From NCBI GenBank assembly GCA_013151555.1, contig JAADIA010000049.1, positions 1 to 62,293 on the forward strand: a stretch of DNA of 62,293 nucleotides, given 5' to 3'. The translations under genes and the position numbers were made by a program. Shown here piece by piece: positions 1 to 56,431 of this stretch. Within the stretch, counting starts at the first letter, position 1. Each line of letters opens with the position of its first letter. Origin of the DNA: Nitrospirota bacterium (lineage in GTDB: Bacteria; NPL-UPA2; JAADIA01). Under the pieces are notes generated by a model. It was given only the letters and a program-made list of their open reading frames with translations. It made no database searches and was not told where the DNA came from.

Positions 1-11
1 TGGGAGGTGTA

Positions 12-429
12 ATGATGGAAGGGCCTTATGGCGAGAAAGTAATGGAACATTTTAAAAATCCCCGGAATGTGGGCGAGATGGAAAATCCGGATGGTGTCGG
101 CCATGTCGGGAATCCGATATGTGGAGATATCATGGAACTTTATATCAAGGTCGAGGGGATGAAGATCGTTGATGCTAAGTTCAAAACCTTCGGCTGTGGC
201 GCGGCTATTGCCACCAGCAGCATGGTCACGGAACTTGTGAAAGGAAAAACCATTGATGATGCTTTAAAGATTTCTAACCGGGCCGTGGCCGAGGCTGGGC
301 GGTCTTCCTCCTATCAAGATGCACTGCTCCGTCTTAGCCGAACAGGCTCTGAGGTCGGCCATAGATAATTACCTGAAGAAGTCCAAAGGGGAAGAGACAA
401 AATCTGAAACCGGGGAGGGTACAGATTAA
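12..429 (+). pseudogene. iscU: IscU/NifU-N-type Fe-S cluster scaffold, reading frame broken near nt 294-296
   Basis: ORF 12..368 gives MEHFKNPRNVG, GNPICGD and FKTFGCGAAIA, which carry two of the three scaffold Cys. The conserved LGGLPPIKMHCSVLAEQALRSAIDNYLKK segment with the third Cys lies in the +1 frame (295..429, TAA at 427-429). GGAGGTG RBS at 3-9. Confidence 0.75.
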
Positions 430-452
430 GTCAATTAAAAATGCAAAATTAA

Positions 453-526
453 GACAGGATTTACAGGATTAAACCGGATAGAGATGAGGGAATAAGAAAA
501 ATTTAAAAAATCCAGTTAATCCTGGC
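453..526. repeat. Family A palindromic element, copy A1
   Basis: Left arm gacaggatttacaggattaaaccggat; right arm atccagttaatcctg. Confidence 0.75.
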
Positions 527-594
527 AAAAGAAGAGATTTAACCTTGCTTGATTTTGTCTGGGTAAATCAGGATCAATAAACAGGAGAAATGAT

Positions 595-1305
595 ATGATA
601 TCTCAAGAGATGTTGCAAAAAAAAGCGGAAGAACTGGAGTCGGGTAGTGCGGAGGAAATTTTAAAATGGGCTTTAACGGAATATGGAGATAAGGTAGCCC
701 TGGCCTGTAGTTTTGGAGCGGAGGATATGGTGCTCATCGATATGATGGTTAAGATAGACCCGCAAGCGCATATCTTCACTCTGGATACGGGAAGGCTTCC
801 CCAGGAAACTTACGAAGTAATGGAGAGGGTGAGAGAAAAATATGGGGCGAAGATCGCCGTCTTCTTTCCCGATACCAAGTCGGTCGAGGAAATGGAAGAG
901 AAACATGGCCCTAATCTTTTCTATAAGAGTCTGGAGTTAAGAAAATTATGTTGCACCGTTCGCAAGCTTGATCCTTTGAAGAGAGCATTTGCGGCCCTTT
1001 CTGCCTGGGTCTGCGGTCTGAGGAAAGAACAAGCGGTTACGCGTACCGGGATAAAGAAGGTAGAGATTGGCGCAGACCCTAACGCCATAGTCAAGATAAA
1101 TCCTTTAGCCGACTGGACGGAAAAACAGGTCTGGGATTATATTAAGAAGAATGATGTTCCCTATAATAAGTTACATGACCTCAACTTTCCCAGTATCGGT
1201 TGCTTGCCCTGTACCCGGGCGGTAACTCCCGGAGAGGATGTAAGAGCGGGACGCTGGTGGTGGGAAAGTCCGGAGCAGAAAGAGTGTGGATTGCATAAAA
1301 AGTAG
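595..1305 (+). CDS. cysH: Assimilatory adenylylsulfate (APS) reductase, Fe-S cluster CysH type
   Basis: PAPS/APS reductase fold. Cys-Cys pair (KLCCTVRK) plus CLPC (CxxC) and C-terminal catalytic ECGLH. AGGAGA RBS before ATG 595. Confidence 0.9.
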   Translation: MISQEMLQKKAEELESGSAEEILKWALTEYGDKVALACSFGAEDMVLIDMMVKIDPQAHIFTLDTGRLPQETYEVMERVREKYGAKIAVFFPDTKSVEEMEEKHGPNLFYKSLELRKLCCTVRKLDPLKRAFAALSAWVCGLRKEQAVTRTGIKKVEIGADPNAIVKINPLADWTEKQVWDYIKKNDVPYNKLHDLNFPSIGCLPCTRAVTPGEDVRAGRWWWESPEQKECGLHKK

Positions 1306-1395
1306 TTGAAGGTTGAAAGTATAAAGTTGAAAGTAAAAACGCTTTTTAGAGCTTTAAACCTTAAACCTTAAACCTTAAACTTTAAACTTTCAACT
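1306..1395. repeat. Family B heptamer array, copy B1 (inverted blocks)
   Basis: Five units of TTGAARG-type, a spacer, then six units of CYTTMAA-type. The arms are roughly three-quarters complementary by eye. Confidence 0.85.
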
Positions 1396-1407
1396 ATATT
1401 GGAGGTT

Positions 1408-2583
1408 ATGGTGAAAGACCAAATTGAACCCCATGGGGGTAAGTTGATAAATCGGGTGGTTGAAGAACGGGAGAGAGAATCGCTCATTGAGAAAGCTTTC
1501 AATCTCCGAGAAGTTCATCTTAGCAAGAGAGAGGTCTCTGACTTAGAGATGATCGCTACCGGGGCCTTTTCTCCCCTGACAGGGTTTATGGGAAGGGAAG
1601 ATTACGAGAGCGTTCTGGATGTGAAGAGATTGTCCAACGGCCTTGTCTGGACTATCCCCGTTACCCTTTCGGTAAAGGAGGAAGAAGCGAAGAAATTAAA
1701 GGTCGGGGAGGAGCTGTCTCTTCTGGACCCGGCCGGGACAACTCTGGCCATCCTTCATCTTGAAGAGATCTACCCGCATGATAAGGAAAAAGAAGCCCTT
1801 CAGATTTACGGTACCAGGGATAGAAAGCATCCGGGAGTAGATAAAGTTTACCTGATGGGGGAAGTCTTACTGGGAGGGAAAGTTACCGTTATCCGTCTGC
1901 CCAAACATGATGATTTTTCCCCTTACCGGCTTCCGCCCCGGGAGACGAGGAAATTATTTAAGGAAAAGGGCTGGAAAAGAGTTGCTGCTTTTCAAACCAG
2001 AAATCCTATCCATCGAGCGCACGAATATATTCAAAAATGTGCCCTGGAAATAGTGGATGGACTTTTTCTTCATCCCCTGGTAGGGGAGACAAAAGGCAGC
2101 GATATCCCCGCTGATATTCGCATAAAGAGCTATGAAGTCGTCCTGGAGAAATATTATCCTAAAGACAGGTTTATCATGGCCGTTCTCCCCATGGCTATGA
2201 GGTATGCGGGCCCCCGGGAGGCCATCCTCCATGCTCTCGTCCGGAAGAATTACGGAGCTACCCATTTTATCGTGGGAAGAGACCATGCCGGGGCGGGAAA
2301 TTTCTACGGGCCTTTCGATGCTCACTATATCTTTGACGAATTTGAACCGGAGGAATTAGGGATAACTCCCCTGTTCTTCGATAATGCTTTCTTCTGCAAA
2401 CAATGTCAGGGGATGGCTTCTTATAAGACCTGCCCGCATGAGTCCAGCGAACATATCTCTCTCAGCGGGACAAAAGTTCGGAGTCTCCTCCGCAAAAAAC
2501 AGCAACCTCCCGTGGAGCTTACTCGACCGGAGGTGGCTCAGGTATTGATTGAGGGAGCCTCCAGACCGGACTATCAAATATGA
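1408..2583 (+). CDS. sat: Sulfate adenylyltransferase (ATP sulfurylase)
   Basis: QTRNPIHRAHE and GRDHAG motifs, N-terminal PHGG. The ORF track starts at TTG 1399, but GGAGG at 1401-1405 favours ATG 1408 or GTG 1411. Confidence 0.9.
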   Translation: MVKDQIEPHGGKLINRVVEERERESLIEKAFNLREVHLSKREVSDLEMIATGAFSPLTGFMGREDYESVLDVKRLSNGLVWTIPVTLSVKEEEAKKLKVGEELSLLDPAGTTLAILHLEEIYPHDKEKEALQIYGTRDRKHPGVDKVYLMGEVLLGGKVTVIRLPKHDDFSPYRLPPRETRKLFKEKGWKRVAAFQTRNPIHRAHEYIQKCALEIVDGLFLHPLVGETKGSDIPADIRIKSYEVVLEKYYPKDRFIMAVLPMAMRYAGPREAILHALVRKNYGATHFIVGRDHAGAGNFYGPFDAHYIFDEFEPEELGITPLFFDNAFFCKQCQGMASYKTCPHESSEHISLSGTKVRSLLRKKQQPPVELTRPEVAQVLIEGASRPDYQI

Positions 2584-2584
2584 A

Positions 2585-2710
2585 ATCACGCGGTTCTTTT
2601 GCCGCCTGGCTGCGTTACACGCTGCGCTCCCTTGTGCGGCGTACAGAATATGTACGCCTCCGCAGTCGCTTGCGCAAGCCTTGCCAGACCGTCAAAACTC
2701 CTCGCGTGAG
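2585..2710. repeat. GC-rich imperfect palindrome of about 125 bp (single copy in this window)
   Basis: Outer atcacgcg / cgcgtgag, centre ggcgtac-agaatat-gtacgcc, with further partially complementary GC-rich segments. Confidence 0.7.
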
Positions 2711-2761
2711 ATAAGCTAATTACGCCGGCATTCTACAAAGTGTCGGTCCGGGATATGAACA

Positions 2762-3169
2762 ATGCCAATGAAGATAAAGCAATCCTGTTTCTCGGAGATG
2801 GTCGAACATTGTCAGCAGGAACATCCTCATGAAGCCTGCGGGATCCTGGCTGGTAAGGATGACCTGGTAACAAAAGTTTATAAGATGGCTAATACTTCCG
2901 AGACGCCGGAAATCTGTTATTCTATCGACACTAAAGTGTTGATTAAGCTCAATAAGGAAATGAGAAATTCCGGGCTGGAGATGCTGGGGATCTACCATTC
3001 CCATGGGTCCAGTGCTCCTTACCCTTCCGTCCGGGATGTAAAGGATGCGCACTATCCGGAAGCGAGCTATGTTATCGTTTCCTTAACCAATTGCTGCAAA
3101 CCGGAAGTGGCTGCGTTTAAAATCGTAGAGGGAAAGATAGAAGAGGAAGAGTTGATCCTGGACAATTGA
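2762..3169 (+). CDS. Stand-alone JAMM/MPN+ metalloprotease (Mec/HcyD/QbsD-like sulfur-carrier C-terminal peptidase)
   Basis: HSH-x7-S-x2-D in YHSHGSSAPYPSVRD with upstream E-x-x-CG. 135 aa, single domain. Confidence 0.85.
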   Translation: MPMKIKQSCFSEMVEHCQQEHPHEACGILAGKDDLVTKVYKMANTSETPEICYSIDTKVLIKLNKEMRNSGLEMLGIYHSHGSSAPYPSVRDVKDAHYPEASYVIVSLTNCCKPEVAAFKIVEGKIEEEELILDN

Positions 3170-3175
3170 AAAAAT

Positions 3176-3253
3176 AAACCACAAGATTTCACGAGATTAA
3201 CATAAAAAAATAATACAATTTTAAGAATAATCTGGTGTTAATCTGTGGTTAAA
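3176..3253. repeat. Family F palindromic element, copy F1
   Basis: aaaccacaagatttcacgagattaac ... aataatctggtgttaatctgtggttaaa. Confidence 0.85.
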
Positions 3254-3318
3254 TTCGTTGGTATTAGAAGGTTTCTCTATGGTAAAGTTTAATATATTCC
3301 ATATGGGGGAGGATAATC

Positions 3319-3651
3319 ATGGTTAAGGAAATCAATGATAATAATTTTCAAGCGGAAGTTTTAGAAGCGGATTTGCCGGTGCTGGTAGATTTCTGGGCTT
3401 CCTGGTGTGGCCCCTGCAAAAGGCTTGCTCCCCTTATAGAGGAGATAGCCGGGGAATACAGCGGGCGCCTGAAAGTTTGCAAACTTAACGTGGATGATAA
3501 TCCGGCAACGTCCCCGAAGTATGAAATTATGAGCATTCCTACTTTAATCATCTTCAAAGGGGGCGATGCCAAGGAACGGATTGTCGGACTGGTGCCGAAG
3601 TCCGCCCTGGAGGCGAAGATAAAACCGTATCTGAAAAACATAAAAACTTGA
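3319..3651 (+). CDS. trxA: Thioredoxin
   Basis: WCGPC active site, 110 aa, GGGAGG RBS. Confidence 0.95.
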   Translation: MVKEINDNNFQAEVLEADLPVLVDFWASWCGPCKRLAPLIEEIAGEYSGRLKVCKLNVDDNPATSPKYEIMSIPTLIIFKGGDAKERIVGLVPKSALEAKIKPYLKNIKT

Positions 3652-3729
3652 CAGGATTTACACGATAAACGGGATAAAAATAGGGAAAAATTAATATAAT
3701 TAAAAAATAAAAATCCTGTTCATCCTGTC
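3650..3729. repeat. Family A element, copy A2
   Basis: gacaggatttacacgataaacggga ... aaatcctgttcatcctgtc. The trxA TGA stop overlaps its first bases. Confidence 0.8.
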
Positions 3730-3782
3730 AAAAGAAGGAAGCGCTTTTAAGAATACCTGATCCTGTCGAAGGAGTAAAAAAA

Positions 3783-5108
3783 TTGCAATCAAACTCCCAA
3801 CTCTTTTCCCAGGCCCGGAAACACATCCCCGGCGGGGTGAATAGTCCCGTGCGAGCTTTTCAGGCCGTAGGGGGGACCCCGCTCTTTATAGATCGGGCAA
3901 AAGGGTCTAAGCTCTACAGTGCCGAGGGGAAAGAATATCTGGATTACTGTCTTTCCTGGGGAGCTTTAATTCTGGGACATAGTTGTCCCGGCGTCATCGT
4001 CGAAGTAAAGAAAGCCCTGGAGAAAGGAACCAGCTTTGGCGCTCCCACCCGGATGGAAACGGAGTTAGCCCGGAAGGCTTGTGAGGCGGTTCCCTCAATG
4101 GAACTGGTGCGGCTGGTGAACTCGGGAACGGAAGCCGTAATGAGCGCCATAAGAGTTGCCCGGGGCTATACCGGGAGAAATAAAATCATCAAATTCGCCG
4201 GCTCTTACCATGGTCATGCCGATTATCTTCTCGTGGAAGCCGGTTCCGGAGCCATGACGCTAAACGTAGGAACTGGAGATGCCGCCGGAGGGAGGGAAAG
4301 TCAATCTTTGCCGTCCAGTCTGGGGGTGCCGGAAGATTTTACCAAACATACTTTCGTTCTCCCCTACAATAATCTGAAAGCGGTAGAAGAAACCGTCAAG
4401 AAACACGCTGCCGATATCGCCTGTATAATCGTGGAACCTGTTTCCGGGAACATGGGAGTCATCCCTCCGCAGGAAGGTTTCCTGGAAGGTTTGCGCCGGA
4501 CTTGTGACCGGCATGATGTCATCTTAATATTTGATGAAGTAATTACCGGGTTCCGCCTTGCCTACGGCGGAGCCCAGGAACTCTTTTCTCTCAAGGCGGA
4601 TTTAACCTGCCTGGGCAAGATAATGGGAGGGGGGTTCCCTCTGGCGGCCTATGGAGGCAGGAAAGACATCATGGAATGTGTGTCTCCTTTGGGTAACGTC
4701 TATCAGGCGGGAACTCTTTCCGGGAATCCGGTAGCTACCACAGCCGGGCTGGCAACGTTAAATTTGTTATCTTCCCAGAAGGAAGAGTTATATAAATCGC
4801 TGGCAGAGAAGGCTGGTTATCTATATGCCGAAATAAAAAAAGAGGCTGAGAAGTCAGGGGTCGAGATGCAAATTCATCGGGTGGGTTCTATGCTTTCCCT
4901 GTTTTTCACTTCCCGCCCGGTCAGCGATTATGAGACGGCCAAGGCAACGGATACCGTAGCTTACCGCAAATTCTTTCATAAGATGTTGGAGGAAGGGGTT
5001 TACCTTCCTCCCTCCAATTTCGAATCTTACTTTCTCTCCTCTTCCCATAGCGGGGAGGATGTAGAGAAGACGATCCGGGCCGTTGGGGCAGCTATGAAAA
5101 AGATATGA
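3783..5108 (+). CDS. hemL: Glutamate-1-semialdehyde 2,1-aminomutase
   Basis: N-terminal IPGGVNSPVRAF, class III aminotransferase core, GKIMGGGFP Lys region. TTG start with GAAGGAG RBS. Confidence 0.9.
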   Translation: MQSNSQLFSQARKHIPGGVNSPVRAFQAVGGTPLFIDRAKGSKLYSAEGKEYLDYCLSWGALILGHSCPGVIVEVKKALEKGTSFGAPTRMETELARKACEAVPSMELVRLVNSGTEAVMSAIRVARGYTGRNKIIKFAGSYHGHADYLLVEAGSGAMTLNVGTGDAAGGRESQSLPSSLGVPEDFTKHTFVLPYNNLKAVEETVKKHAADIACIIVEPVSGNMGVIPPQEGFLEGLRRTCDRHDVILIFDEVITGFRLAYGGAQELFSLKADLTCLGKIMGGGFPLAAYGGRKDIMECVSPLGNVYQAGTLSGNPVATTAGLATLNLLSSQKEELYKSLAEKAGYLYAEIKKEAEKSGVEMQIHRVGSMLSLFFTSRPVSDYETAKATDTVAYRKFFHKMLEEGVYLPPSNFESYFLSSSHSGEDVEKTIRAVGAAMKKI

Positions 5109-5156
5109 GTCGCGAGTTATCAGAACTAATCACTATTGAAGGCAGGAGGAAAAAAC

Positions 5157-5369
5157 ATGAACCTTGTTATTAATGGGAAGAAGAAAGAATTGGAGGAAGG
5201 AACGACTGTCGGCCGGCTTCTGAAAATAAAAAAAGTCCGGCCCGAGGTAGTAACAGTGGAATTAAATGATCAAATAATTGAGAGAGAGAAATATGGAGAC
5301 ACGATCCTTAAAGAGGGAGACAGGTTGGAGCTGGTCTATTATATGGGAGGGGGAGTTGGTTTAGTTTAA
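5157..5369 (+). CDS. ThiS/CysO-like ubiquitin-fold sulfur carrier with residues beyond the Gly-Gly
   Basis: 70 aa from ATG 5157 (AGGAGGA RBS). Ends ...LELVYYMGGG-VGLV. The tail and the TAA stop lie in the first units of the downstream heptamer array. Confidence 0.75.
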   Translation: MNLVINGKKKELEEGTTVGRLLKIKKVRPEVVTVELNDQIIEREKYGDTILKEGDRLELVYYMGGGVGLV

Positions 5370-5466
5370 AGTTAAAAGTTTAAGGTCTAAAGTTAAAAGT
5401 TTAAGGTTTAAGGTTTAAAGTTGAAGGTTGAGGGTTAGGAATTGCAAAAAGACTTTAGACTTTATG
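5357..5466. repeat. Family B heptamer array, copy B2
   Basis: About 11 tandem GTTWAAR heptamers (5364-5439), then gactttagacttta as a short opposing arm. Confidence 0.85.
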
Positions 5467-5488
5467 TTTTCGGATCAAGGGAGAGATT

Positions 5489-6418
5489 ATGATGCAGTCA
5501 AAGGTGGTTAACAATGTATTGGAACTTATCGGCAATACCCCGTTGGTGAAGATGAACAAAATCGGAGAAGAAAATATGGCCGAAGTTCTGGCCAAGTTAG
5601 AAAGTTTTAATCCCGGAGGGAGCGTTAAGGATAGAATCTGCCTGAATATGATTGAGGATGCCGAGAAGAGAGGCCTTCTCAAGCCGGGGGCGATTGTTGT
5701 GGAGCCTACCTCGGGCAATACGGGAATCGGGTTGGCCATGGTGGCGGCTGTCAAGGGCTATAAATGTATTCTTACCATGCCCGAGACGATGAGCGTTGAG
5801 CGTCGTTATATCCTGGAATCCTATGGGGCCGAGATTGTGCTCACCCCGGGCATTGAAGGGATGATGGGAGCGGTAAAGAAGGCCGAGGAGATAGTCCGGA
5901 ATACTCCTAATTCTTTCTTGCCTCAGCAGTTCAAAAATCCAGCTAACCCGGACGTACACCGTCGGACTACCGCGGCAGAAATATTAGCTGCCACGGAAGG
6001 AAAGTTAGAAGCTTTCGTGGCTGGGGTGGGTACCGGAGGGACGATTACCGGCGTAGGCGAAATACTTAAAAAAGAGATTCCTTCCGTGAAAATCATCGCC
6101 GTCGAGCCGGAAACCTCCCCGGTTCTTTCCGGAGGCGAACCCGGGCCCCATAAGATTCAAGGGATAGGGGCAGGGTTCATTCCCGAAGTGCTTAACCGCA
6201 AGATAATTGATGAGATGATTCCGGTAAGTGATGACGATGCTTTTCATACTACCAAGCGGCTGGCCCGGGAAGAAGGAATCTTCGCAGGAATATCATCAGG
6301 AGCGGCTGTCTTTGCCGCCCTCAAAGTGGCTAAGGATTTAGGTAAAGAAAAGAGAGTTGTCGTTATTCTTCCCGATACCGGGGAGAGATACTTTAGTATG
6401 GAACAATACTTTGAATAG
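5489..6418 (+). CDS. cysK: Cysteine synthase (O-acetylserine or O-phosphoserine sulfhydrylase, CysK/CysM family)
   Basis: PLP fold type II: SVKDR lysine motif, [18 protein letters not shown]. CysK versus CysM cannot be resolved by eye. Confidence 0.9.
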
Positions 6419-6433
6419 AGATAATTTAAAAAG

Positions 6434-6513
6434 CAGAATTAAGGATTAAGTGGTAAGAATTAAGCAAAAACATTTAATTCTTAGAACGAAGTGAGCATCT
6501 TAATCATTAACCC
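6434..6513. repeat. Family E (GGATTAA heptamer) element, copy E1
   Basis: cagaattaaggattaagtggtaagaattaagc ... ttagaacgaagtgagcatcttaatcattaaccc. Confidence 0.85.
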
Positions 6514-6585
6514 TACATCGTTAAATCTCCGCGTCTCTGTGGTTAAGTGTGTTGTAGTACTACCGTAAAAATAAGGAGAGTCTTG

Positions 6586-7449
6586 ATGGCTGAGCACGAT
6601 CTTAATGCGTTGAAAAGCTCGGGATTTATGACCCAGAAGGAGAAAGACCTCTTCTCGGTGAGACTGCGGATTGCCGGTGGGTATATCAAGGCTGAGCAGT
6701 TGCCTAAGTTGGCAGAAATATCCAAGAAGTTTGGGCGGGGGCATCTTCACCTGACGACCAGGCAAGGGATAGAGATTCCTTATGTTCACTTCGATAATCT
6801 GGAGAAGGTGAGAAATGAATTGGCCGAAGTAGGTTTAAAAATAGGAGCTTGTGGTCCCCGGGTGCGGACAGTAACGGCTTGTCAGGGAGAAGCTTGTTCT
6901 CACGGTCTTATTGAAGCTCAGCATCTGGGAAAAAAAATAGACGAGATTTTCTTCGGCCGGTCCGGTATCCCGCACAAGTTTAAGATCTGCGTCACCGGTT
7001 GTCCCAATGCCTGTATCAAGCCGGTGGAGAATGACTTCGGGATAATGGGAGTGGTCAGGAAGATTTTCGTCAAGGAAAAGTGTAACTATTGCCGGTTATG
7101 CCAGGAGGTCTGTCCGGTGGGAGCTATCAAGGTGGAAGAGAACGAACTTCACTATGATCCTTCCAAGTGTATCTTCTGCGGCGACTGTATCTTTGCCTGT
7201 CCCTCCTATGCCTGGGAACAGGAGAAGGTAGGATACAAAATCTTCGTGGGCGGAAAGATGGGCAAGTTCCCTGATCTTGGCCGGGAAGTTTTCAGTTTCT
7301 GGGAGGGAGAAGAAAGACTTTTCCAACTTATCGAAAAGACCCTGGATTTCTATAAGGAAGCAGGGAAAAAGGGAGAGAGGTTCGGAGGAACCATCGGTCG
7401 GATTGGGCTGGATAATTATAAAGAGAAGATGGAGGCGGCTATCGCATGA
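6586..7449 (+). CDS. Small sulfite/nitrite reductase-like protein with inserted 2x[4Fe-4S] ferredoxin domain (AsrC/Dsr-LP-like)
   Basis: Nitrite/sulfite reductase ferredoxin-like half-domain (LRIAGG...[11 protein letters not shown]). Cys clusters TACQGEAC and CVTGCPNAC. Two CxxCxxCxxxCP-type motifs ([24 protein letters not shown]). Likely start ATG 6586 after AAGGAGAG. Confidence 0.7.
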
Positions 7450-8642
7450 TAAAGATCTATCTTGACCAGGCAGCGGCAACTCTCCCTCTGCCGGAAGTGG
7501 TAGAGGAGATGATTCCTTACCTGAGGGAGAAGTTCGGTAACCCTTCCAGCCTCCACGAGGTCGGACAGGTGGCCAGAAAGGCAGTGGAAGAAGCCCGGGC
7601 TCGGGTAGCCGGACTGATCAAAGCCGACCCGGAAGAGATCTTCTTCACCTCCGGAGGGACAGAGTCCAACAATTTTGCTTTGAAGAGTATGGCCTTTGCT
7701 CATCAGGATAAAGGGAAGCATATCGTTACCTCGGTCATTGAGCACCATTCCATAATTCATTCGGCTAAGGCCTTAGAGAAATTAGGATTTGAAGTAACTT
7801 ATCTCCCGGTAGACAAATTTGGTTTTGTTGACCCCCGGGCGGTAAAGGGAGCCTTGCGGGAAGGGGAGACGATCCTCGTTTCCATCATGCATGCTAATAA
7901 TGAGGTAGGAACGATCGAGCCCATAGCGGAAATCGGCCGGGTGATAAAAGAATATAACGAAAATTTGGCCTCGAAATCCGGGCGGCGAATTTACTTTCAT
8001 ACCGATGCCGTCTCCACAGTGGGGACAATTCCCGTGGATGTTAAGGAGTTGGGAGTAGACCTTTTGAGTTTGGCGGCTTGCCAGTTCTATGGTCCTAAAG
8101 GAGCGGGAGCTCTCTTTGTTAAAAAGGGAGTCCGGATTATACCTTTCCTCCACGGAGGCATTCAAGAGGGGGGAAGGCGGGCCGGAACGGAGAATGTCGC
8201 CGGAATCGTCGGTTTGGGGAAGGCTGCGGAGATAGTCTCCCGAGAAATGGGTTCCTGGAACGAACGGATAACCGGTCTGAGGGACCGCTTGATAAACGGC
8301 TTGCAGGAAAAGATAGACCATCTTTACCTGAATGGTCATCCCACTAAAAGGCTTCCCGGAAACGTGAATGTCTGTGTAGAGTTTATAGAGGGAGAATCCA
8401 TGCTCCTTTATCTGGGTATGGAAGGGATTGCTGTTGCCAGCGGTTCGTCCTGCACCTCCCACGCCTTGAAAGCTTCCCATGTCCTTGTAGCTTTAGGGGT
8501 GGACCCGGCCTTAGCTCAAGGTTCGCTCCTCTTCAGCTTGGGGAAAGACAACAGTGAGGAAGACATCGATTGTGTCCTGGAGGAAATGCCTCCGATAGTC
8601 AACCGTCTGAGGCAGATGTCACCGCTTTATAAAAAACCGTAA
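7446..8642 (+). CDS. iscS: Class I cysteine desulfurase (NifS/IscS)
   Basis: [15 protein letters not shown], active-site loop ASGSSCTSH. The start overlaps the upstream stop (ATGA at 7446-7449). Confidence 0.9.
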
Positions 8643-8785
8643 CCACGGATAAACTAACTAAAAAGGTAAAGCACAAAATTAAAAGAGATGAAACCCCGAG
8701 ATTATCCAAGATTTACACGAGAGAAGAGAGAACAAGAACAAATTTAGAGATTACTAAGAAAAATCTTGTAATAATCCCTGCCCTC
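8641..8785. repeat. Family F-like element, copy F3 (degenerate)
   Basis: aaccacggataaac ... ccgagattatccaagatttacacgag ... aaatcttgtaataatcc. Confidence 0.55.
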
Positions 8786-8832
8786 CTCAGGAGGGTGGAT
8801 AACCTGTATCTGCAACTTATCACGGTGAGATT

Positions 8833-9084
8833 ATGGAAGAGATAAAAGTAGACGAGACTTTAGATTGTTTTGGCCTTATCTGCCCGGTGCCGGTGCATCT
8901 CACGGCCAAAAAGATAAAGCAATTTCAGGTAGGGCAAGTCCTGGTAGTGATTGCCGACGACCCCGACTCTCTGCAGGACATACCTGCCTGGTGCAAGTCC
9001 AGTGGGCATAAGCTCCTCCGGTTCGAACCGGAAGGAAATATCTATAAATTTTACATCAGGAAAGAAGCCGAGCAGAATAAATAG
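8833..9084 (+). CDS. TusA/SirA-like sulfurtransferase
   Basis: 83 aa, LDCFGLICPVP (CPxP motif). Confidence 0.8.
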   Translation: MEEIKVDETLDCFGLICPVPVHLTAKKIKQFQVGQVLVVIADDPDSLQDIPAWCKSSGHKLLRFEPEGNIYKFYIRKEAEQNK

Positions 9085-9188
9085 GGCGGAGAAGAAGAGC
9101 AAGGGAAGCAGGAGGGTGGATTTAAGTTGATATTATTCCCGTCTCCAGATATAATAAGGGAAGTTAAGGCAGAAAAAAAGGGTTAACC

Positions 9189-9425
9189 ATGAGCGAAATG
9201 AAAGCGGATGAAAAGTTAGATTTAAGGGGAGAGATTTGCCCCTATAACTTTGTGAAAACGAAGCTCAAACTGGAAGAGATGGAGATAGGACAGATATTGG
9301 AAGTGGTTATTGATAATGGGGAACCGATAAAGAATGTTCCCCGCAGCCTGAAAGAAGATGGACATCAAATTCTTAAAGTGGAGAGAATTGAGCAGTATTT
9401 CAAGTTGGTGATAAAGAAGAGTTAA
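9189..9425 (+). CDS. TusA/SirA-like protein, variant motif
   Basis: 78 aa, LDLRGEICPYNF: the Cys-Pro is kept and the second Pro is lost. The stop lies in heptamer array B3. Confidence 0.7.
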   Translation: MSEMKADEKLDLRGEICPYNFVKTKLKLEEMEIGQILEVVIDNGEPIKNVPRSLKEDGHQILKVERIEQYFKLVIKKS

Positions 9426-9451
9426 AAGTTTAAGGTTTAAAGTTTAAAGTA
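9421..9451. repeat. Family B heptamer array, copy B3
   Basis: gttaaaa gtttaag gtttaaa gtttaaa gt. Confidence 0.8.
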
Positions 9452-9458
9452 AGATGGG

Positions 9459-10706
9459 GTGATGAAAGTGTCTTATGTGAAAGGTTTGAAATGTCGGGAG
9501 TGTGGACGGCACTATCCTAAGGAAGCCCTCTATGTCTGTGAATACTGTTTTGGCTCCCTGGAAGTTGATTACGACTACGCTCGCATCAAGAAAAAACTCA
9601 CTCGAAAAGAATTGACCTCCCGCCCGCAGAACCTCTGGCGTTATAGAGAGCTCCTCCCTCTTGATAAAGCGCCAACCGATGGGATGGGTTCGGGATTTAC
9701 CCCTTTGATAAAAGCCGATAACCTGGCCCGGGAATTGGGAGTCAGGGAACTTTATATAAAAGACGATTCGGTTAACCATCCTACCCTCTCTTTCAAGGAC
9801 CGGGTAGTAGCTGTAGCTCTCTCCAAAGCCAAAGAGTTTGGCTTCGATACGGTAGCCTGTGCTTCAACCGGAAACCTGGGTAATTCAGTATCCGCCCAGG
9901 CAGCAAAGGCAAATCTTGAACGCTATATCTTCATTCCTGCGGATTTAGAGATGGGCAAAGTAATCGGCTCGCTTATCTATGCTCCGAACCTCATCGCTGT
10001 GGAAGGAAACTATGATGAAGTAAACCGTCTCTGTGCCGAGATTGCCTTCAGATACAAATGGGCTTTCGTGAACATCAATATCAGGCCTTACTATGCCGAA
10101 GGGTCAAAGACTTATGCCTATGAAATAGCGGAGCAGTTCGGGTGGCGGGCTCCGGACCATATCGTTGTTCCCTCTGCCGGGGGTTCTCTGATTACGAAAG
10201 TCTGGAAGGGTCTCAACGAACTCTATAAAATCGGCTTAATCGATGATAAACCGCGGACCAAAGTTTATTGTGCCCAGGCAGAAGGATGTGCTCCTATAGT
10301 CACGGCCATCAAGGAGAATAGCGAAGTAATCAAACCGGTAAAACCGCAGACTATCGCTAAATCTCTGGCCATCGGCAACCCCGCTGATGGCTACTATGCC
10401 GTGAACACTGTCCAGACAAGCGGCGGTTGGGGAGAGGAAGCCGACAATGAGGAAATTGTGGAAGGAATGAAACTCCTGGCGCGAACGGAAGGAATCTTCA
10501 CCGAGACTGCCGGAGGGGTAACGGTGGCCGTAACTAAAAAATTGATTGCCCAGGGCCGGATTCCCCGGGACGAATCTATAGTGATTGCCATAACCGGAAA
10601 CGGTCTCAAGACTCAGGAAGCAATCTCCGAGCATATCGGGAGATTTACCAAGATAAAACCGACCCTGGCTTCTTTTGAGAAAAAAGTAAAAGCTCGCCGG
10701 CGTTAG
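9459..10706 (+). CDS. Threonine synthase-family PLP enzyme with N-terminal zinc ribbon (ThrC or MetM-like)
   Basis: CRECG...CEYC ribbon, SFKDR PLP-lysine motif, ASTGN. Start ambiguous (GTG 9459, ATG 9462 or GTG 9468). Confidence 0.8.
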   Translation: MMKVSYVKGLKCRECGRHYPKEALYVCEYCFGSLEVDYDYARIKKKLTRKELTSRPQNLWRYRELLPLDKAPTDGMGSGFTPLIKADNLARELGVRELYIKDDSVNHPTLSFKDRVVAVALSKAKEFGFDTVACASTGNLGNSVSAQAAKANLERYIFIPADLEMGKVIGSLIYAPNLIAVEGNYDEVNRLCAEIAFRYKWAFVNINIRPYYAEGSKTYAYEIAEQFGWRAPDHIVVPSAGGSLITKVWKGLNELYKIGLIDDKPRTKVYCAQAEGCAPIVTAIKENSEVIKPVKPQTIAKSLAIGNPADGYYAVNTVQTSGGWGEEADNEEIVEGMKLLARTEGIFTETAGGVTVAVTKKLIAQGRIPRDESIVIAITGNGLKTQEAISEHIGRFTKIKPTLASFEKKVKARRR

Positions 10707-10730
10707 AATAAGGAACTGAATGAAAAAACA

Positions 10731-10819
10731 GACAGGATTAACAAGATATACCGGATGGTTTTAAAAACAAAACTTTACAAAAAATTTTTAGACATCCGGT
10801 TAATCCCGTAAATCCTGTC
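10731..10819. repeat. Family A element, copy A3
   Basis: gacaggattaacaagatataccggatgg ... gacatccggttaatcccgtaaatcctgtc. The first 21 nt are identical to A4. Confidence 0.85.
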
Positions 10820-10848
10820 AGATTTTCTTTTTTCAAGGAGGGACCAAG

Positions 10849-11130
10849 ATGCCCATCAAAGTGAAGATACCCACGCCTTTACAGAAATTGACTAAGAATC
10901 AGGCTGAGGTGGAGAGTGAAGGGAAGACTGTCCAGGAGTTAATTGATGACCTGGAAAAGAATTATCCCGGGATCAAGGAAAGAATCTGCGATGAAAAAGG
11001 AAAAGTACGCCGGTTCATAAATATCTATGTGAACGAAGAAGATGTGAGGTTCTTGAAGGGGGATGATACTCCCGTAAAAGATGGAGATGAGATATCCATT
11101 ATCCCGGCTATTGCAGGAGGAGCAAGTTAG
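10849..11130 (+). CDS. MoaD/ThiS-family sulfur carrier ending GG-AS
   Basis: 93 aa. C-terminus ...[23 protein letters not shown]. Confidence 0.8.
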
Positions 11131-11236
11131 CCCTCACTTCGTTCAGGGCTAACTTAATTGCAAATTGAAGATTGGAAATTGAAAATTTTAAAATAAAAAA
11201 AGTTTCTTTGAAAAGCATCTTTTTTTAATTTTCGAC
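11127..11236. repeat. Family G element (hairpin plus AAATTGA heptamers), copy G1
   Basis: ttagccc-tcacttcgttca-gggctaa hairpin holding the carrier gene's TAG stop, then aattgca aattgaa gattgga aattgaa aatttta. Confidence 0.8.
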
Positions 11237-11256
11237 TATATAAGTGAGGTTGTAAG

Positions 11257-12060
11257 ATGTCCGATTTTACCGATGAGCAGGTTAAAAGATACAGCCGGCA
11301 GATAATTCTGCCTCAGGTAGGAGGGAAAGGACAGAGGAAACTGTTCGAGGCCAAAGTTCTTATCATTGGAGCCGGAGGTTTGGGTTCGCCCGCCTCCCTT
11401 TACTTAGCCGCAGCGGGGGTAGGCCATCTTGGCATAGTTGATAGCGATGAGGTAGAGGTAAGCAATTTGCAACGGCAGATATTACACTCTACCCGCGACG
11501 TCGGCAGACCGAAAACGAGCTCGGCTAAAGATAGATTAACGAACCTCAATCCTGATGTGGAAGTAATTGTTCATGAGGTGCGTGTTACCTCGGAGAACAT
11601 TCTGAATATAATTAAAGATTACGATATCGTCATTGACGGCAGCGATAATTTCCCTACCCGTTATTTGGTAAACGATGCCTGTGTTATATCCAGGAAACCT
11701 TTATCTCACGGAGGAATATTTCGCTTTGACGGCCAGGCAATAACCATCATTCCGGGCAAAGGTCCCTGCTACCGCTGTCTTTTCCCCGAACCCCCTCCCC
11801 GGGGATTGGTTCCCAGTTGCCAGGAAGCAGGAATTCTGGGAGCAGTAGCGGGAGTCATCGGTCTCATTCAAGCCAATGAAGTATTAAAATTTATCCTGGA
11901 CATAGGGGAACTGTTGGTGGGGAAACTTCTTATTTTCAACGCTCTGGAATCCAGCTTCCGACAGGTTGCCGTCCCCAAGGATAAAAATTGTCCCGTCTGC
12001 GGAGATAATCCTACCATAACTGAGTTGATCGATTACGAAGAATTTTGTTCACTTCGGTGA
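11257..12060 (+). CDS. MoeB/ThiF/HesA-family E1-like adenylyltransferase without a rhodanese domain
   Basis: RYSRQI, GAGGLGSP nucleotide loop, two CxxC pairs (CYRC, CPVC). 267 aa. Confidence 0.85.
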   Translation: MSDFTDEQVKRYSRQIILPQVGGKGQRKLFEAKVLIIGAGGLGSPASLYLAAAGVGHLGIVDSDEVEVSNLQRQILHSTRDVGRPKTSSAKDRLTNLNPDVEVIVHEVRVTSENILNIIKDYDIVIDGSDNFPTRYLVNDACVISRKPLSHGGIFRFDGQAITIIPGKGPCYRCLFPEPPPRGLVPSCQEAGILGAVAGVIGLIQANEVLKFILDIGELLVGKLLIFNALESSFRQVAVPKDKNCPVCGDNPTITELIDYEEFCSLR

Positions 12061-12068
12061 GGATAAAA

Positions 12069-12206
12069 AACCTAACCGCAGAGATACGGAGGACACGGAG
12101 AAACCTCTGAAAAAATTTGTAACTATAGATTATCACAAGATTAACAATTAAAAAAAGAATTAGATTAAATCTTTTTCTGGGTAAATCTCGTGAAATCTTG
12201 TGGTTT
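12069..12206. repeat. Family F element, copy F2
   Basis: The right arm aatctcgtgaaatcttgtggttt (12184-12206) is the exact reverse complement of the F1 left arm (3176-3198, 23 nt). The left part is aaccgcagagatacggaggacacggag. Confidence 0.85.
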
Positions 12207-12272
12207 ATATTTTATCCTCAAGGTTTTTCTCGGTGAGTTCTGTGGTGAAAATAAATAGTGGAGGTAAAGAAA

Positions 12273-12512
12273 ATGGCTAAACAAATGGTCAAATTGACTT
12301 TTCCCCAGGAGTTGATTAAAGAACCGGTTACCTTTAAAATGGCCAAGAAATATGACATCATCCCCAATATCCGCCGAGCCCGGGTCAGTGAGACCGTAGG
12401 GGAAATCGTTCTGGAACTGGAAGGGAAGAAAGAGAATCTGGACAAAGGGATCAAATATTTAGAGAAGCGTAATGTCAAAGTCGAACCGATAGTAGGAGAC
12501 ATCGTAGAATAA
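12273..12512 (+). CDS. Stand-alone NIL-domain protein
   Basis: 79 aa from ATG 12273 (GGAGGT RBS). Resembles the MetN C-terminal NIL domain (VKLTFP...EPV...NI..A.V...GEIVLELEG). Confidence 0.6.
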   Translation: MAKQMVKLTFPQELIKEPVTFKMAKKYDIIPNIRRARVSETVGEIVLELEGKKENLDKGIKYLEKRNVKVEPIVGDIVE

Positions 12513-12543
12513 GAAAATAAACCCGCCTATCTTCCCCTAATGA

Positions 12544-12631
12544 GCACACAATTTACGGAACGTAAATTGTATGTGCGAATTATCCCGATAGTTGCAAGAA
12601 AATTTAGTGTAAATTTTCGAGCGCTTTTGCT
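12544..12631. terminator. Two adjacent hairpins between convergent genes (no U-tract)
   Basis: gcacacaatttacg-gaa-cgtaaattgtatgtgc (12544-12576) and ttatcccgatag...ctatcgggataa (12579-12631). They lie between the NIL gene (+) and the CgeB-like gene (-). Confidence 0.45.
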
Positions 12632-12676
12632 ATCGGGATAAGCCCAGGGTGTAGCCTGTTTTAAGAGGCTCTTGCT

Positions 12677-13639
12677 TCAACTTTTCAGCAGTTCCGAAAG
12701 GATGCCAAGCATCTTTTCCATACTTTGCTGCCAGGTATAATGAGCATAAACATGTTTCTGCCCGGCCGCGGCAATCCGTTTTCGTTCTTCCGGCTTCTCC
12801 CGGTAATAGTCAAGGAGTTGGAGACATTCACGGTAACGGTTTTTCCATCCCTTCCCGAGAGGAAACCAGACCAGATGTTCTCTGTCGGTGAACCATTTTT
12901 CTAATCCGGGGACATAAGAAGTCAGATGAAATCCCCGGCAGGCCAGGGTGAGAAAGGTGCGGTCGGAGAAATAATCCGGGATAGTCTGTTTGTCATTGAG
13001 ACCAAGGACGATTTCGGCACCCGAACAGACCCGGGCAAAATTCTCGCTGTCCCGGAGTTCCCCTTGATAAGGAAGGTCGTCCGGCCAGGAGGGAGAGCCC
13101 CATATCTTTACCTGGAAGCCTCGCTTCTTTACCTGTCTCAGGAGTTGTTCCCGGCCGGCTTTGTTCGTCCCGACAAAAGCTACTTCGCATCGATAGAGAG
13201 AAGAGTCAGATTCTATATAGCGATGAACTTCGGGATCACATCCTTCCCAGAGGTGATGGACGTTGTTGAATCCCAGGCGCCGATACTTATCTCTTAACCC
13301 TCCGGCGGTAACAAAGAAGGAATCTGCTTCCCGTCCCAGACGCACTAACCATCTCGGGATAGGCGAATCCATATAGCGCAGGGAAGCATGGCAGGTTTTC
13401 CGGATTTCCAGAAGGGTAGCGGGAGAGATGCCTTCTCCTTTTACCAGGAGGAAAACGTCCGGCTTTTCCTGCCGGACGGTATCAATCATCCGTGCCTGCA
13501 TCTTCTCGTTCCCAAGCTCCCGGCGTTCCCGGCGGTAATCGAAAGGGACGACTTTTTGGCCAAGTCCCTCCAGAGCTTTCTTCATAAAAACTACTGTTGA
13601 TGAGGATTTCTCTAAAGAACCGGACAGGATGATTTTCAT
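12677..13639 (-). CDS. CgeB-family / DUF3880-type glycosyltransferase-like protein
   Basis: 320 aa. Pattern resembles spore-maturation CgeB/YkvP GT1-like proteins. Its start overlaps the stop of the upstream GT4 gene (ATGA). Confidence 0.55.
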   Translation of the reverse strand: MKIILSGSLEKSSSTVVFMKKALEGLGQKVVPFDYRRERRELGNEKMQARMIDTVRQEKPDVFLLVKGEGISPATLLEIRKTCHASLRYMDSPIPRWLVRLGREADSFFVTAGGLRDKYRRLGFNNVHHLWEGCDPEVHRYIESDSSLYRCEVAFVGTNKAGREQLLRQVKKRGFQVKIWGSPSWPDDLPYQGELRDSENFARVCSGAEIVLGLNDKQTIPDYFSDRTFLTLACRGFHLTSYVPGLEKWFTDREHLVWFPLGKGWKNRYRECLQLLDYYREKPEERKRIAAAGQKHVYAHYTWQQSMEKMLGILSELLKS

Positions 13640-23127: not shown

Positions 23128-23170
23128 CTAAAAATCCCAAGTCGGTTATTAGTTATAAATTAACGTTTTT

Positions 23171-23219
23171 TCAACCTTAAACCTTAAACCTTCAACCTTC
23201 AACTTTAGACCTTGAACGA
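23171..23219. repeat. Family B heptamer array, copy B5 (opposite orientation)
   Basis: tcaacct taaacct taaacct tcaacct tcaactt tagacct tgaacga. Contains the stop of the LpxL-like gene. Confidence 0.85.
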
Positions 23220-25254: not shown

Positions 25255-25361
25255 GACAGGATTAACAAGATATACAGGATAGTTTTCTCGAAGAATCTAC
25301 CCCTAAGTGGAAATTTTTTGTAAACTTTTTAGAAAATCCAGTTAATCCGGTGAATCCTGTC
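25255..25361. repeat. Family A element, copy A4
   Basis: gacaggattaacaagatatacaggatag ... aaaatccagttaatccggtgaatcctgtc. Confidence 0.85.
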
Positions 25362-46175: not shown

Positions 46176-46185
46176 CTTATCTCCC

Positions 46186-46295
46186 CTTTCAACCTTAAAC
46201 TTTCGACTTTAAACTTAAAACATAGACTTTGGACCTACAGTACCGACCTTAGACTTAAGACCAGACAAATTTTTAGTCTTAGGTCTATAGTCTTA
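46186..46295. repeat. Family B-like heptamer array with hairpin, copy B7
   Basis: ctttcaa ccttaaa ctttcga ctttaaa cttaaaa ..., then gaccttagacttaagac / gtcttaggtctatagtc inverted arms. Confidence 0.8.
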
Positions 46296-46301
46296 TTTTC
46301 T

Positions 46302-48638: not shown

Positions 48639-48663
48639 TTGGCAATTCTCCTTAAAAATAAGA

Positions 48664-48728
48664 CAGAATTAAGTAGTAAGTTATAAGGATTAAGTTTTTC
48701 TTAATACTTAATTCTTAATACTTAATCC
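48664..48728. repeat. Family E element, copy E3
   Basis: cagaattaagtagtaagttataaggattaag ttttt cttaatacttaattcttaatacttaatcc. Confidence 0.85.
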
Positions 48729-51134: not shown

Positions 51135-51180
51135 AGCTCCACCACTTAGGTCGCCTCCGGCGGCAACAGATATAAAGAAA

Positions 51181-51236: not shown

Positions 51237-51237
51237 T

Positions 51238-56414: not shown

Positions 56415-56431
56415 TTTAGACTTTCTGCCAG

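Follow-up and report, generated by a model that had tools for sequence, protein, structure and literature searches.

The window analyzed here is the whole length (62,293 nucleotides [nt]) of contig JAADIA010000049.1, assembly GCA_013151555.1, from a Nitrospirota bacterium that GTDB places in the NPL-UPA2 lineage. It opens with a cluster of 16 co-directional plus-strand genes, from nt 12 to nt 12512, that probably encodes an operon for assimilating sulfate into cysteine as well as homocysteine through protein thiocarboxylates formed on two small sulfur carriers (Table 1). Carrier A, of the ThiS type, lies beside a CysK-type cysteine synthase, and carrier B, of the CysO/MetO type, lies beside a homolog of threonine synthase (ThrC-like). 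The first-pass annotation had delimited the 16 genes and named a domain for each. All of the open reading frames (ORFs) were confirmed at the same coordinates, the domains were confirmed for every gene by Pfam and NCBIfam profiles, and a motif check of the translations showed complete catalytic motifs in the enzymes. The gaps between the genes are longer than had been described, measuring 36 to 197 bp and mostly 90 to 200 bp, plus one 4-bp overlap; they are packed with heptamer repeats and palindromes, and the same genes abut in relatives. The genes 3' of the cluster, from nt 12677, are convergent minus-strand glycosyltransferase genes, and a purine-rich skew of the plus strand over 1 to 12 kb is consistent with plus-strand coding. 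Because the window starts at the IscU gene, the cluster may extend further upstream. Minus-strand ORFs within the cluster (e.g., 7782 to 8480) were set aside as nested antisense frames in well-supported genes and were not run against the family libraries.

Table 1. Genes of the sulfur cluster and intergenic repeat elements, in window coordinates
Feature	Position (nt)	Strand	Profile support or remark
IscU/NifU-type Fe-S scaffold, frameshifted	12-429 (ORF 12-368)	+	NifU_N, 130 bits
Thioredoxin-dependent adenosine 5'-phosphosulfate (APS) reductase (CysH, Fe-S type)	595-1305	+	TIGR02055, 264 bits (cutoff, 235)
ATP sulfurylase (Sat)	1399-2583	+	PUA_2 and ATP-sulfurylase domains; NF003166, 569 bits
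JAMM/MPN+ metalloprotease (Mec+/HcyD-like)	2762-3169	+	Prok-JAB, 89 bits
Thioredoxin (Trx; CGPC)	3319-3651	+	TIGR01068, 124 bits
HemL, glutamate-1-semialdehyde aminomutase	3783-5108	+	TIGR00713, 608 bits
Carrier A, ThiS type	5157-5369 (longest ORF from 5136)	+	TIGR01683, 73 bits
CysK-type cysteine synthase (pyridoxal 5'-phosphate [PLP] enzyme, SVKDR)	5489-6418	+	TIGR01139, 475 bits
Small siroheme sulfite reductase (SiR)	6586-7449 (longest ORF from 6547)	+	NIR_SIR_ferr, NIR_SIR, Fer4
NifS-type cysteine desulfurase	7446-8642	+	TIGR03402, 511 bits; SGSSC active-site loop
TusA1 (CPVP)	8833-9084	+	TusA, 88 bits
TusA2 (CPYN, YedF-like)	9189-9425	+	TusA, 85 bits
MetM-like ThrC homolog with N-terminal Zn ribbon	9459-10706	+	PALP; NF006050, 307 bits
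Carrier B, CysO/MetO type (MoaD-like)	10849-11130	+	PDB matches to CysO
MoeB/ThiF-type E1 adenylyltransferase, 267 aa	11257-12060	+	ThiF, 294 bits
Stand-alone NIL (ACT-like) protein	12273-12512 (longest ORF from 12258)	+	NIL, 62 bits
Heptamer arrays	1312-1395, 5363-5437, 9420-9450, 11156-11187, 23170-23217, 44132-44161, 46186-46216, 48698-48726, 60443-60483
Repetitive extragenic palindrome (REP)-like copies	453-526, 3650-3729, 10724-10826, 25255-25361
Long hairpin followed by a U-run, gap between ThrC-like and carrier B genes	10724-10826	+	Inverted repeat I1, a copy of the palindrome family

Homologs of the ThrC-like protein were scanned in one genome per GTDB species, and at least 588 species have a relative. 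The survey set consists of the best 80 of these loci by ThrC-like identity (64 to 79%), and the 16 window proteins plus eight proteins of locus L001 were mapped onto the surveyed loci, cited here by their L numbers, by tblastn. The 80 loci come from Omnitrophota, Saganbacteria/Margulisiibacteriota, "Planctomycetia" metagenome-assembled genomes (MAGs), Elusimicrobiota, Armatimonadota, Nitrospirota, Methylomirabilota, Poribacteria, Thermodesulfobacteriota, Scalindua, and one Actinomycetota MAG. Homologs at 76 to 79% identity are mainly from Candidatus Omnitrophota MAGs, and the nearest named relatives, at 86 to 88% identity, are from candidate division NPL-UPA2; exact-sequence look-ups of the ThrC-like and E1 proteins of the window returned no record. 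The cluster is most likely an assimilatory sulfur operon of uncultured bacteria whose relatives are mostly Omnitrophota.

Downstream genes were counted over the 60 loci with at least 2.5 kb of sequence 3' of the ThrC-like gene, upstream genes over the 52 loci with at least 5 kb of 5' sequence, and complete sets over the 43 loci with both flanks. In 56 of the 60 downstream loci the MoaD-like carrier gene adjoins that for the ThrC-like protein; the NIL gene was found in 49 and the E1 gene in 32. On the upstream side, CysK was found in 39 of 52 loci, followed by JAMM (33), CysH (27), ThiS (24), TusA (23), SiR (14), Sat (9), IscU (3), NifS (2), and Trx (1). By this comparison, Trx, Sat, NifS, TusA1, and IscU are lineage-specific additions to the cluster. 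The complete set of two carriers, CysK, the ThrC-like enzyme, JAMM, and E1 occurs in 11 of 43 loci, each with a single E1 match and a single JAMM match within the stretch examined. A co-occurrence survey of the gene order had been proposed on the basis of the window alone; the core order recurs across many phyla, so the arrangement is not due to chance.

Two modules recur. The first is JAMM-ThiS-CysK, in which JAMM lies directly 5' of ThiS-CysK in many relatives, and the second is ThrC-like-carrier-(E1)-NIL, of which the ThrC-like/carrier/NIL triad also stands on its own (e.g., L025, L030, L037, and L038). In five Omnitrophota loci (L001, L003, L008, L018, and L021) the modules are joined in one order: CysH, a PHO4-type permease, JAMM, HemA-HemC-CobA/HemD-HemB-HemL, ThiS::CysK, SiR, TusA, ThrC-like, carrier, E1, and NIL, and in L001 an Rrf2 gene heads the cluster. 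The order found in the window from CysK onward (CysK-SiR-NifS-TusA-TusA-ThrC-like-carrier-E1-NIL) recurs in L085, an 88% identical relative. In L085, an inserted gene of the 23S_rRNA_IVP family (5520 to 5876) separates the carrier gene from the E1 gene.

Carrier A has Geobacter ThiS (2k5p) as its best PDB match. Translation probably starts at the ATG at nt 5157, which gives a protein of 70 amino acids, as does the stored gene call. The protein ends in YYMGGG followed by VGLV, and residues after GGG were found in all 30 of the ThiS-type carriers surveyed as well. Of these 30, 14 have nonconserved tails, from a single residue to more than 30 residues long, and the other 16 are fused in frame to CysK with no stop at the junction (including L001 at 7718 to 8857 and L003 at 7753 to 8889). 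The fusions keep a (F/Y)(F/Y)MGGG motif, and in several the start methionine of CysK directly follows GGG (YYMGGG-MPFSDRIA). Because tails always follow Gly-Gly and because the CysK fusions occur, the ThiS-type carrier is tied to both CysK and JAMM. A separate word-index homolog search with ThiS (70 to 77 amino acids) returned 45 stand-alone proteins and gives no measure of fusion frequency. Adenylation of such carriers requires a free Gly-Gly carboxylate. Given the tails and fusions, carrier A would always, and carrier B often, have to be cleaved after Gly-Gly, and this maturation step would give JAMM a role beyond product release. The window protease has the HSHx7SxxD site (HSHGSSAPYPSVRD, at residue 79) and an EACG motif, and by analogy with characterized proteases we propose that it both trims the carrier tails and frees cysteine or homocysteine from the carriers.

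The cysteine half of the cluster can also be read differently. CysK might take free sulfide (or zero-valent sulfur), with ThiS serving thiamin synthesis, tRNA thiolation, or another thio-cofactor, so that only the homocysteine branch is thiocarboxylate based; we regard this as unlikely. The window enzyme does score as a canonical CysK, passing the cysK model TIGR01139, with 2egu and 2q3b as its best PDB matches and 316 bits on the cysM model TIGR01138, below the cutoff of 394. Carrier A likewise passes the ThiS equivalog model TIGR01683, and a Thi4-type thiazole synthase and/or ThiI adjoins the cluster in L001 (12661 to 14552), L005, L015, and L019, neighbors that also suggest a broader sulfur incorporation supra-operon. 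Eight high-GC Omnitrophota loci (L027, L035, L046, L048, L050, L053, L056, and L058) keep JAMM, CysK, the MetM- and MetO-like proteins, E1, and NIL without ThiS; since a TusA-like ORF with the motif DVRDM(L/T)CAQAL stands where ThiS would be, between JAMM and CysK, these lineages have one carrier only. Against this reading, ThiS is fused to the N terminus of CysK in 16 species with GGG kept, and the JAMM-ThiS-CysK order matches mec-cysO-cysM of Mycobacterium tuberculosis. No ThiG, ThiH, or ThiF-type thiamin genes were found in any surveyed cluster, and JAB genes are never found in thiamin or molybdenum cofactor (Moco) operons (PMC1779556). On the earlier concern that the carriers might simply be the ThiS and MoaD of thiamin and molybdopterin synthesis, carrier A does pass the ThiS model, and carrier B is far from MoaD. 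Both carriers are tailed, a JAB gene is present, and no ThiG, ThiH, or MoaE gene, nor any further carrier or E1 gene, was found in the 62-kb window.

Carrier B ends in AIAGG followed by AS and is about 50% identical over its full length to the CysO proteins of A. orientalis (4n6e_B, E = 7e-24) and M. tuberculosis (3dwg_C, E = 4e-23). Its MoaD matches in the PDB have E values of 1e-5 or weaker and do not include E. coli MoaD, and the bacterial moaD model gives 35 bits, with a cutoff of 66. Among 70 MoaD-like carriers from the survey, 17 end exactly at GG; the others are short tailed or fused. Carrier B is fused in frame to E1, via PAIAGG plus 2 to 4 residues, in five loci (L014, L015, L019, L034, and L071) and to NIL in 11 loci (L033, L036, L040, L041, L043, L045, L047, L052, L065, L067, and L074). 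The E1 protein was correctly described earlier as a 267-residue protein lacking a rhodanese domain, ThiF being the only domain found. It has a GxGxxG motif, two CxxC motifs, and C188, and among PDB entries none of ThiF, Uba4, and MoeB is closer to it than the others.

A carrier, an E1, and a JAMM protease are also the components of ubiquitin-like conjugation, and the three proteins might form a system resembling the archaeal SAMP/UbaA/desampylase set, one that would modify or regulate the sulfur assimilation enzymes and not carry sulfur. Carrier B does pass the SAMP1 model, with 64 bits against a cutoff of 60, and E1 (356 bits on the UbaA model) and JAMM (81 bits on the desampylase model) give scores below the respective cutoffs. 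Archaeal SAMPs act both in conjugation and as sulfur carriers. However, the linkage to two PLP enzymes of γ- and β-replacement and to sulfate reduction is tight and widespread, carrier B finds its nearest match in CysO, a sulfur carrier defined by biochemistry, and no E2- or E3-like genes are present. A role in conjugation is thus very improbable.

The ThrC-like protein is a PLP enzyme (PALP, 232 bits; TIGR00260, 289 bits) with an SFKDR lysine motif, about 40% identical, by eye from the printed alignment, to Bacillus subtilis ThrC (6cgq). Solved threonine synthases align to it only from residue 55 onward; its first 55 residues form an invariant CxxC...CxxC Zn ribbon (CxxC at residues 11 and 26) that is not found in the solved ThrC proteins. 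In L076, from Candidatus Magnetominusculus, a canonical ribbon-less ThrC gene (11797 to 12909) directly follows the ThrC-like, carrier, and NIL genes, and the ThrC-like protein is therefore not the housekeeping ThrC but a paralog with a different job. By analogy with MetM, described below, we propose that it is a thiocarboxylate-dependent homocysteine synthase acting on O-phosphohomoserine.

The third member of the homocysteine module is the NIL protein. It more likely starts at nt 12273, giving 79 amino acids, than at the start of the 84-residue ORF. Lacking any cysteine, it does not act as a carrier of persulfide. Its homologs share an invariant PNIRRA motif and, at the C terminus, a GDIVE motif that is nearly invariant, and the homolog search returned stand-alone proteins only among the matches listed. 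The AlphaFold2 model (predicted local distance difference test score, 86) has the ACT-like β-α-β-β-α-β fold expected from the match to PF09383 and superposes on the C2 domain of MetN (Foldseek matches 3tui, 3tuz, and 3dhw; template modeling score, 0.79 to 0.81; root mean square deviation, 1.1 to 1.5 Å), with aspartokinase ACT domains as more distant matches. The invariant N37-I38 pair aligns with N295-I296 of E. coli MetN, in which Asn295 is presumably needed for methionine binding and trans-inhibition. NIL is most likely a ligand-sensing (methionine or homocysteine) or docking subunit of the homocysteine branch. The fold and the Asn-Ile motif are shared with both MetN C2 and the NIL-ferredoxin protein MA1822 of the DUF39 pathway of methanogens and Desulfovibrio. 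Proteins of the MA1822 type have also been linked to homocysteine synthesis (PMC5764234). Unlike these, the window protein stands alone, without an ATPase, a ferredoxin domain, or a cysteine, and it accompanies a homocysteine route that is not homologous to the DUF39 pathway.

The sulfate reduction genes bear on where the sulfur of the carriers comes from. The APS reductase has CC119, C203xxC, and ECGLH230 motifs, and the thioredoxin of the cluster is likely its reductant. The SiR consists of NIR_SIR_ferr and NIR_SIR domains and, inserted into them, a ferredoxin with two [4Fe-4S] clusters, a domain plan shared with F420-dependent sulfite reductase (Fsr), small Dsr-like enzymes, and AsrC. Its best PDB match, end to end, is to residues 351 to 612 of Fsr (7np8, E = 8e-40), but the F420H2-dehydrogenase half of Fsr is absent, and the AsrC model TIGR02912 gives 163 bits, far under its cutoff of 324. 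Two adjacent, shorter SiR-like genes replace the small SiR gene in Saganbacteria/Margulisiibacteriota (L006, L013, L016, and L017) and may represent a heterodimeric form. HemL was considered as an aminotransferase of the pathway and rejected: in relatives it is the last gene of a HemA-HemC-HemD/CobA-HemB-HemL siroheme block at this position, so the window gene is a remnant of such a block, serving SiR.

The first-pass annotation had suggested that the adjacent desulfurase and TusA pair donate persulfide sulfur, and this part of the proposal proved weak, with NifS rarely present in the survey and only TusA2 kept in the cluster. Nearly all TusA matches in related clusters fit TusA2 best. Its gene usually has SiR or CysK on one side and the ThrC-like gene on the other; in L001 and L003 it overlaps the last part of SiR, and it stays beside SiR where the pair has moved (L032, L071, and L065). 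By contrast, L034 and L078 have a separate module made up of NifS, IscU, and a TusA1-type gene, and the window order recurs in L085; NifS and TusA1 are therefore a lineage-specific insertion in the SiR-TusA2-ThrC-like junction. The IscU gene of the window is itself frameshifted near nt 288 to 300. NifU_N covers only profile positions 2 to 94 of 127, and the true C terminus, LGGLPPIKMHCS..., runs in frame 1 to nt 429, where the sequence after the break reads LGGLPPIKMHCSVLAEQALRSAIDNYLKK and matches the L014 and L034 homologs. As a result, the third cysteine ligand of the cluster (in MHCS) is out of frame with what precedes it, through either an assembly error or decay to a pseudogene. NifS, TusA1, and the frameshifted IscU are best explained as a lineage-specific Fe-S or persulfide module inserted here.

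A pathway in which NifS draws persulfide from cysteine and passes it through TusA1 and TusA2 to the rhodanese-less E1, and from there to both carriers, is accordingly quite unlikely. What speaks for it is that NifS, TusA1, and TusA2 lie directly between SiR and the ThrC-like gene in the window and in L085 and that E. coli IscS and TusA contribute to the thiocarboxylation of MoaD. SirA/TusA proteins have also been predicted to substitute for rhodanese (PMC1779556). Even so, NifS is present in too few loci to be a likely general donor, the TusA1 homologs travel with NifS-IscU, and a full route from sulfate to reduced sulfur is encoded in the same operon. Moreover, cysteine sulfur used to make cysteine gives no net synthesis, so a desulfurase is not a net source for de novo cysteine; for the homocysteine branch, such a transfer could operate as a form of transsulfuration. 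The conserved genes that qualify as candidate donors are those for the small Fsr-like SiR and TusA2. Given a 2026 report of zero-valent sulfur (S0) as a product of assimilatory sulfite reductases (PMC13188885), a hand-off from SiR via a TusA persulfide to E1 is plausible, and free sulfide, which was reportedly used in the reconstitution of Wolinella HcyS, is a simple alternative. The sulfur donor of E1 is the least certain step of the pathway.

The two-carrier pathway can then be laid out as follows; the gene content, motifs, linkage, and fusions were observed, and the flow between them is modeled on characterized homologous systems. Sat would convert sulfate to APS, from which the Fe-S APS reductase would form sulfite using electrons from the neighboring thioredoxin, and the small siroheme SiR would reduce the sulfite, with HemL contributing to siroheme supply. 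JAMM would cut off the residues after Gly-Gly on both carriers, and the single rhodanese-less E1 would adenylate both, the adenylates being converted to thiocarboxylates by reduced sulfur in the form of either free sulfide or a TusA2 persulfide. CysK would then combine the ThiS thiocarboxylate with an activated serine, and the MetM-like ThrC homolog would combine the MetO thiocarboxylate with O-phosphohomoserine. After an S-to-N acyl shift, JAMM would free cysteine and homocysteine and regenerate the carriers. As for the earlier claim of two carriers with two PLP enzymes and one E1, the pairing of each carrier with its enzyme is well supported by the fusions and the conserved adjacency described above, and the complete sets contain both; the sharing of one E1 is not universal, because some lineages have two E1 genes or none nearby.

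A more elaborate version of this pathway would combine three elements, and as a whole we consider it rather unlikely. The carriers would be JAMM-cut pro-proteins, with their tails or CysK, E1, or NIL fusions cleaved after Gly-Gly in a bacterial metabolic counterpart of ubiquitin precursor processing. NIL would be an obligatory third component, acting as a methionine/homocysteine switch or as a carrier-docking subunit of the ThrC-type synthase, and such a role would explain why NIL recurs in the unrelated DUF39 homocysteine pathway. Sulfur would pass as persulfide from SiR to TusA2 to E1 without free sulfide, which fits with the reported release of S0 by such reductases when assimilatory (PMC13188885).

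Each half of the cluster resembles a pathway known from other bacteria. The first-pass annotation knew two characterized thiocarboxylate routes, those of CysO and HcyS, but a third is known, that of MetM/MetO in Streptomyces albulus. As relayed in the sources cited, MetM is a ThrC homolog that makes homocysteine from the MetO thiocarboxylate and O-phosphohomoserine (Hasebe et al. 2024, AEM 90:e01247-24, via the GapMind preprint bioRxiv 10.1101/2024.10.14.618325 and PMC12172450), and the same preprint describes MetO as matured by Mec and activated by MoeZ in Streptomyces and MetM as "often misannotated" as threonine synthase (bioRxiv 10.1101/2024.10.14.618325). By analogy, this route would already account for the ThrC-like/MoaD-like pair. 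In both systems a ThrC-homologous PLP enzyme, annotated as threonine synthase, lies directly beside a small ThiS/MoaD-family carrier that ends in Gly-Gly and needs JAMM (Mec) and an E1. The window differs in that its E1, unlike MoeZ, has no rhodanese domain, in that its genes lie in a single operon with sulfate reduction, and in that NIL is a near-constant partner that is sometimes fused to the carrier, whereas the secondary sources name no such partner for Streptomyces. No Streptomyces locus is among the best 80 ThrC-like loci. A single E1 and JAMM for several carriers is probably not new either, because the names Mec and MoeZ are shared with the CysO route and because MoeZR is reported to serve both Moco and cysteine synthesis in mycobacteria (PMC3227635).

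With the Mec+-CysO-CysM system of M. tuberculosis, the cysteine half shares the JAMM-carrier-cysteine synthase order kept in relatives, the intact HxHx7Sx2D site of the protease, and, as proposed here, activation of the carrier by an E1 on which more than one carrier relies. Unlike in that system, the carrier paired with the cysteine synthase is of the ThiS type, and it is the ThrC-like enzyme that the CysO-like carrier lies beside; the synthase is of the CysK type and not the O-phosphoserine-specific CysM type; and M. tuberculosis CysO ends at GG, whereas the ThiS-type carrier always needs C-terminal cleavage.

The operon class as such was catalogued in 2006 by Iyer, Burroughs, and Aravind, who listed operons with ThiS/MoaD, JAB, an E1 that "always lacks" rhodanese, SirA/TusA, and sulfate assimilation genes and predicted that SirA/TusA replaces rhodanese in them (PMC1779556, row 4e), so both the class and the idea of TusA in place of rhodanese are some 20 years old. 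Like the row 4e operons and the HcyS-HcyD-HcyF-MetY system of Wolinella succinogenes, the window has a tailed ThiS-family carrier, a JAB protease, a rhodanese-less E1, and SirA/TusA, with Sat, APS/3'-phosphoadenosine 5'-phosphosulfate reductase, and sulfite reductase in the same operon. Unlike the HcyS system, its homocysteine enzyme is a ThrC homolog and not an O-acetylhomoserine sulfhydrylase, and it has two carriers of different families, NIL, a small Fsr-C-like SiR, and a CysK that is fused in many species. No MetY was found in the window cluster with the Pfam and NCBIfam profiles, and the survey was not queried for MetY. The individual parts are thus largely anticipated by the 2006 catalog, CysO, and MetM/MetO. 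What is new is their combination: an always-precursor ThiS carrier, often fused to a CysK-type synthase, together with a CysO/MetO carrier and a Zn-ribbon ThrC homolog, a single rhodanese-less E1, TusA2, a small Fsr-like SiR, and a near-constant NIL.

Several points weigh against the two-carrier interpretation. In addition to the ThiS model score and the Thi4/ThiI neighbors noted above, CysK is of the canonical O-acetylserine sulfhydrylase A type, not the CysO-using CysM type of M. tuberculosis, and could simply be using free sulfide. Two E1 genes were found in L068 and L074, some lineages have no E1 gene nearby, and others have the TusA-like ORF in the ThiS position. The likeness to S. albulus MetM/MetO is drawn from descriptions in secondary sources. 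In S. albulus, a S-adenosylmethionine (SAM) riboswitch is reported upstream of metM (PMC12172450), and no SAM riboswitch was found in window positions 1 to 12700 with Rfam at either the gathering threshold or E ≤ 1; this difference is probably regulatory and does not define membership in the MetM/MetO group. Finally, other E1 proteins and carriers, as well as ThiG, MoaE, cysE, and thrB, may be encoded outside the 62 kb examined.

The intergenic regions of the window contain two kinds of repeats (Table 1). On both strands, many start codons are preceded, at a distance of 10 to 100 nt, by heptamer tandem repeats of the GTTTAAG/AGTTTAA/GTTGAAG family, most of them in sense orientation. About 10 GTTTAAG-like copies occupy the ThiS-CysK junction, and L085 has heptamer arrays of other unit sequences at equivalent intergenic positions. 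A REP-like palindrome (GACAGGATTnACAnGAT..ACCGGAT, loop, ATCCnGTTAATCCnGT) is present in four of the gaps between genes. Of these, the copy that separates the ThrC-like and carrier B genes is predicted to fold into an RNA hairpin of -37.1 kcal/mol (z score, -4.66), and 9-mers related to the palindrome occur in the ThrC-like/carrier gap of L085. Rfam gave no riboswitch or leader of any kind in positions 1 to 12700, and matches to microRNA hairpins were dismissed as spurious hits on the intergenic palindrome. Promoter-like sites numbered 24, against 15.6 expected, and terminator-like sites 15, against 17.3 expected.

The other 50 kb of the window encode lipopolysaccharide core and lipid A genes, MsbA, alanine racemase, malate dehydrogenase, a two-component system, TrpD, PurN, PurM, a 2-oxoacid:ferredoxin oxidoreductase, enolase, and one tRNA. 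On the minus strand, 44772 to 58513 is a Pel-type exopolysaccharide cluster with PelG and a PelF-like protein (DUF3492, glycosyltransferase family 4), as well as tetratricopeptide repeat and HEAT proteins, a PelD-like GAF-GGDEF protein, GH114, and DUF2194/DUF2334. The sole other possibly sulfur-related gene of the window, at 18364 to 19428 on the minus strand, encodes a YeiH-like membrane protein of PF03601 (Cons_hypoth698), a family to which NCBI often gives the name putative sulfate exporter.

If the two-carrier interpretation is true, many uncultured phyla make both of the sulfur amino acids via protein thiocarboxylates, among them Omnitrophota, Saganbacteria/Margulisiibacteriota, Elusimicrobiota, Methylomirabilota, Poribacteria, and Thermodesulfobacteriota, and a ThrC-type enzyme of this kind is found in at least 588 species. 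Since standard annotation labels the proteins involved as threonine synthase, ThiS, MoaD, MoeB, and ferredoxin, methionine auxotrophy would be wrongly predicted for these organisms, which bears on claims of host dependence in such small-celled bacteria. The ThiS::CysK, MetO::E1, and MetO::NIL fusions would offer clean pairings of carrier, enzyme, and protease, and the link to NIL would give an entry point to what this domain does in homocysteine synthesis, a question that goes back to the work on methanogen MA1822.

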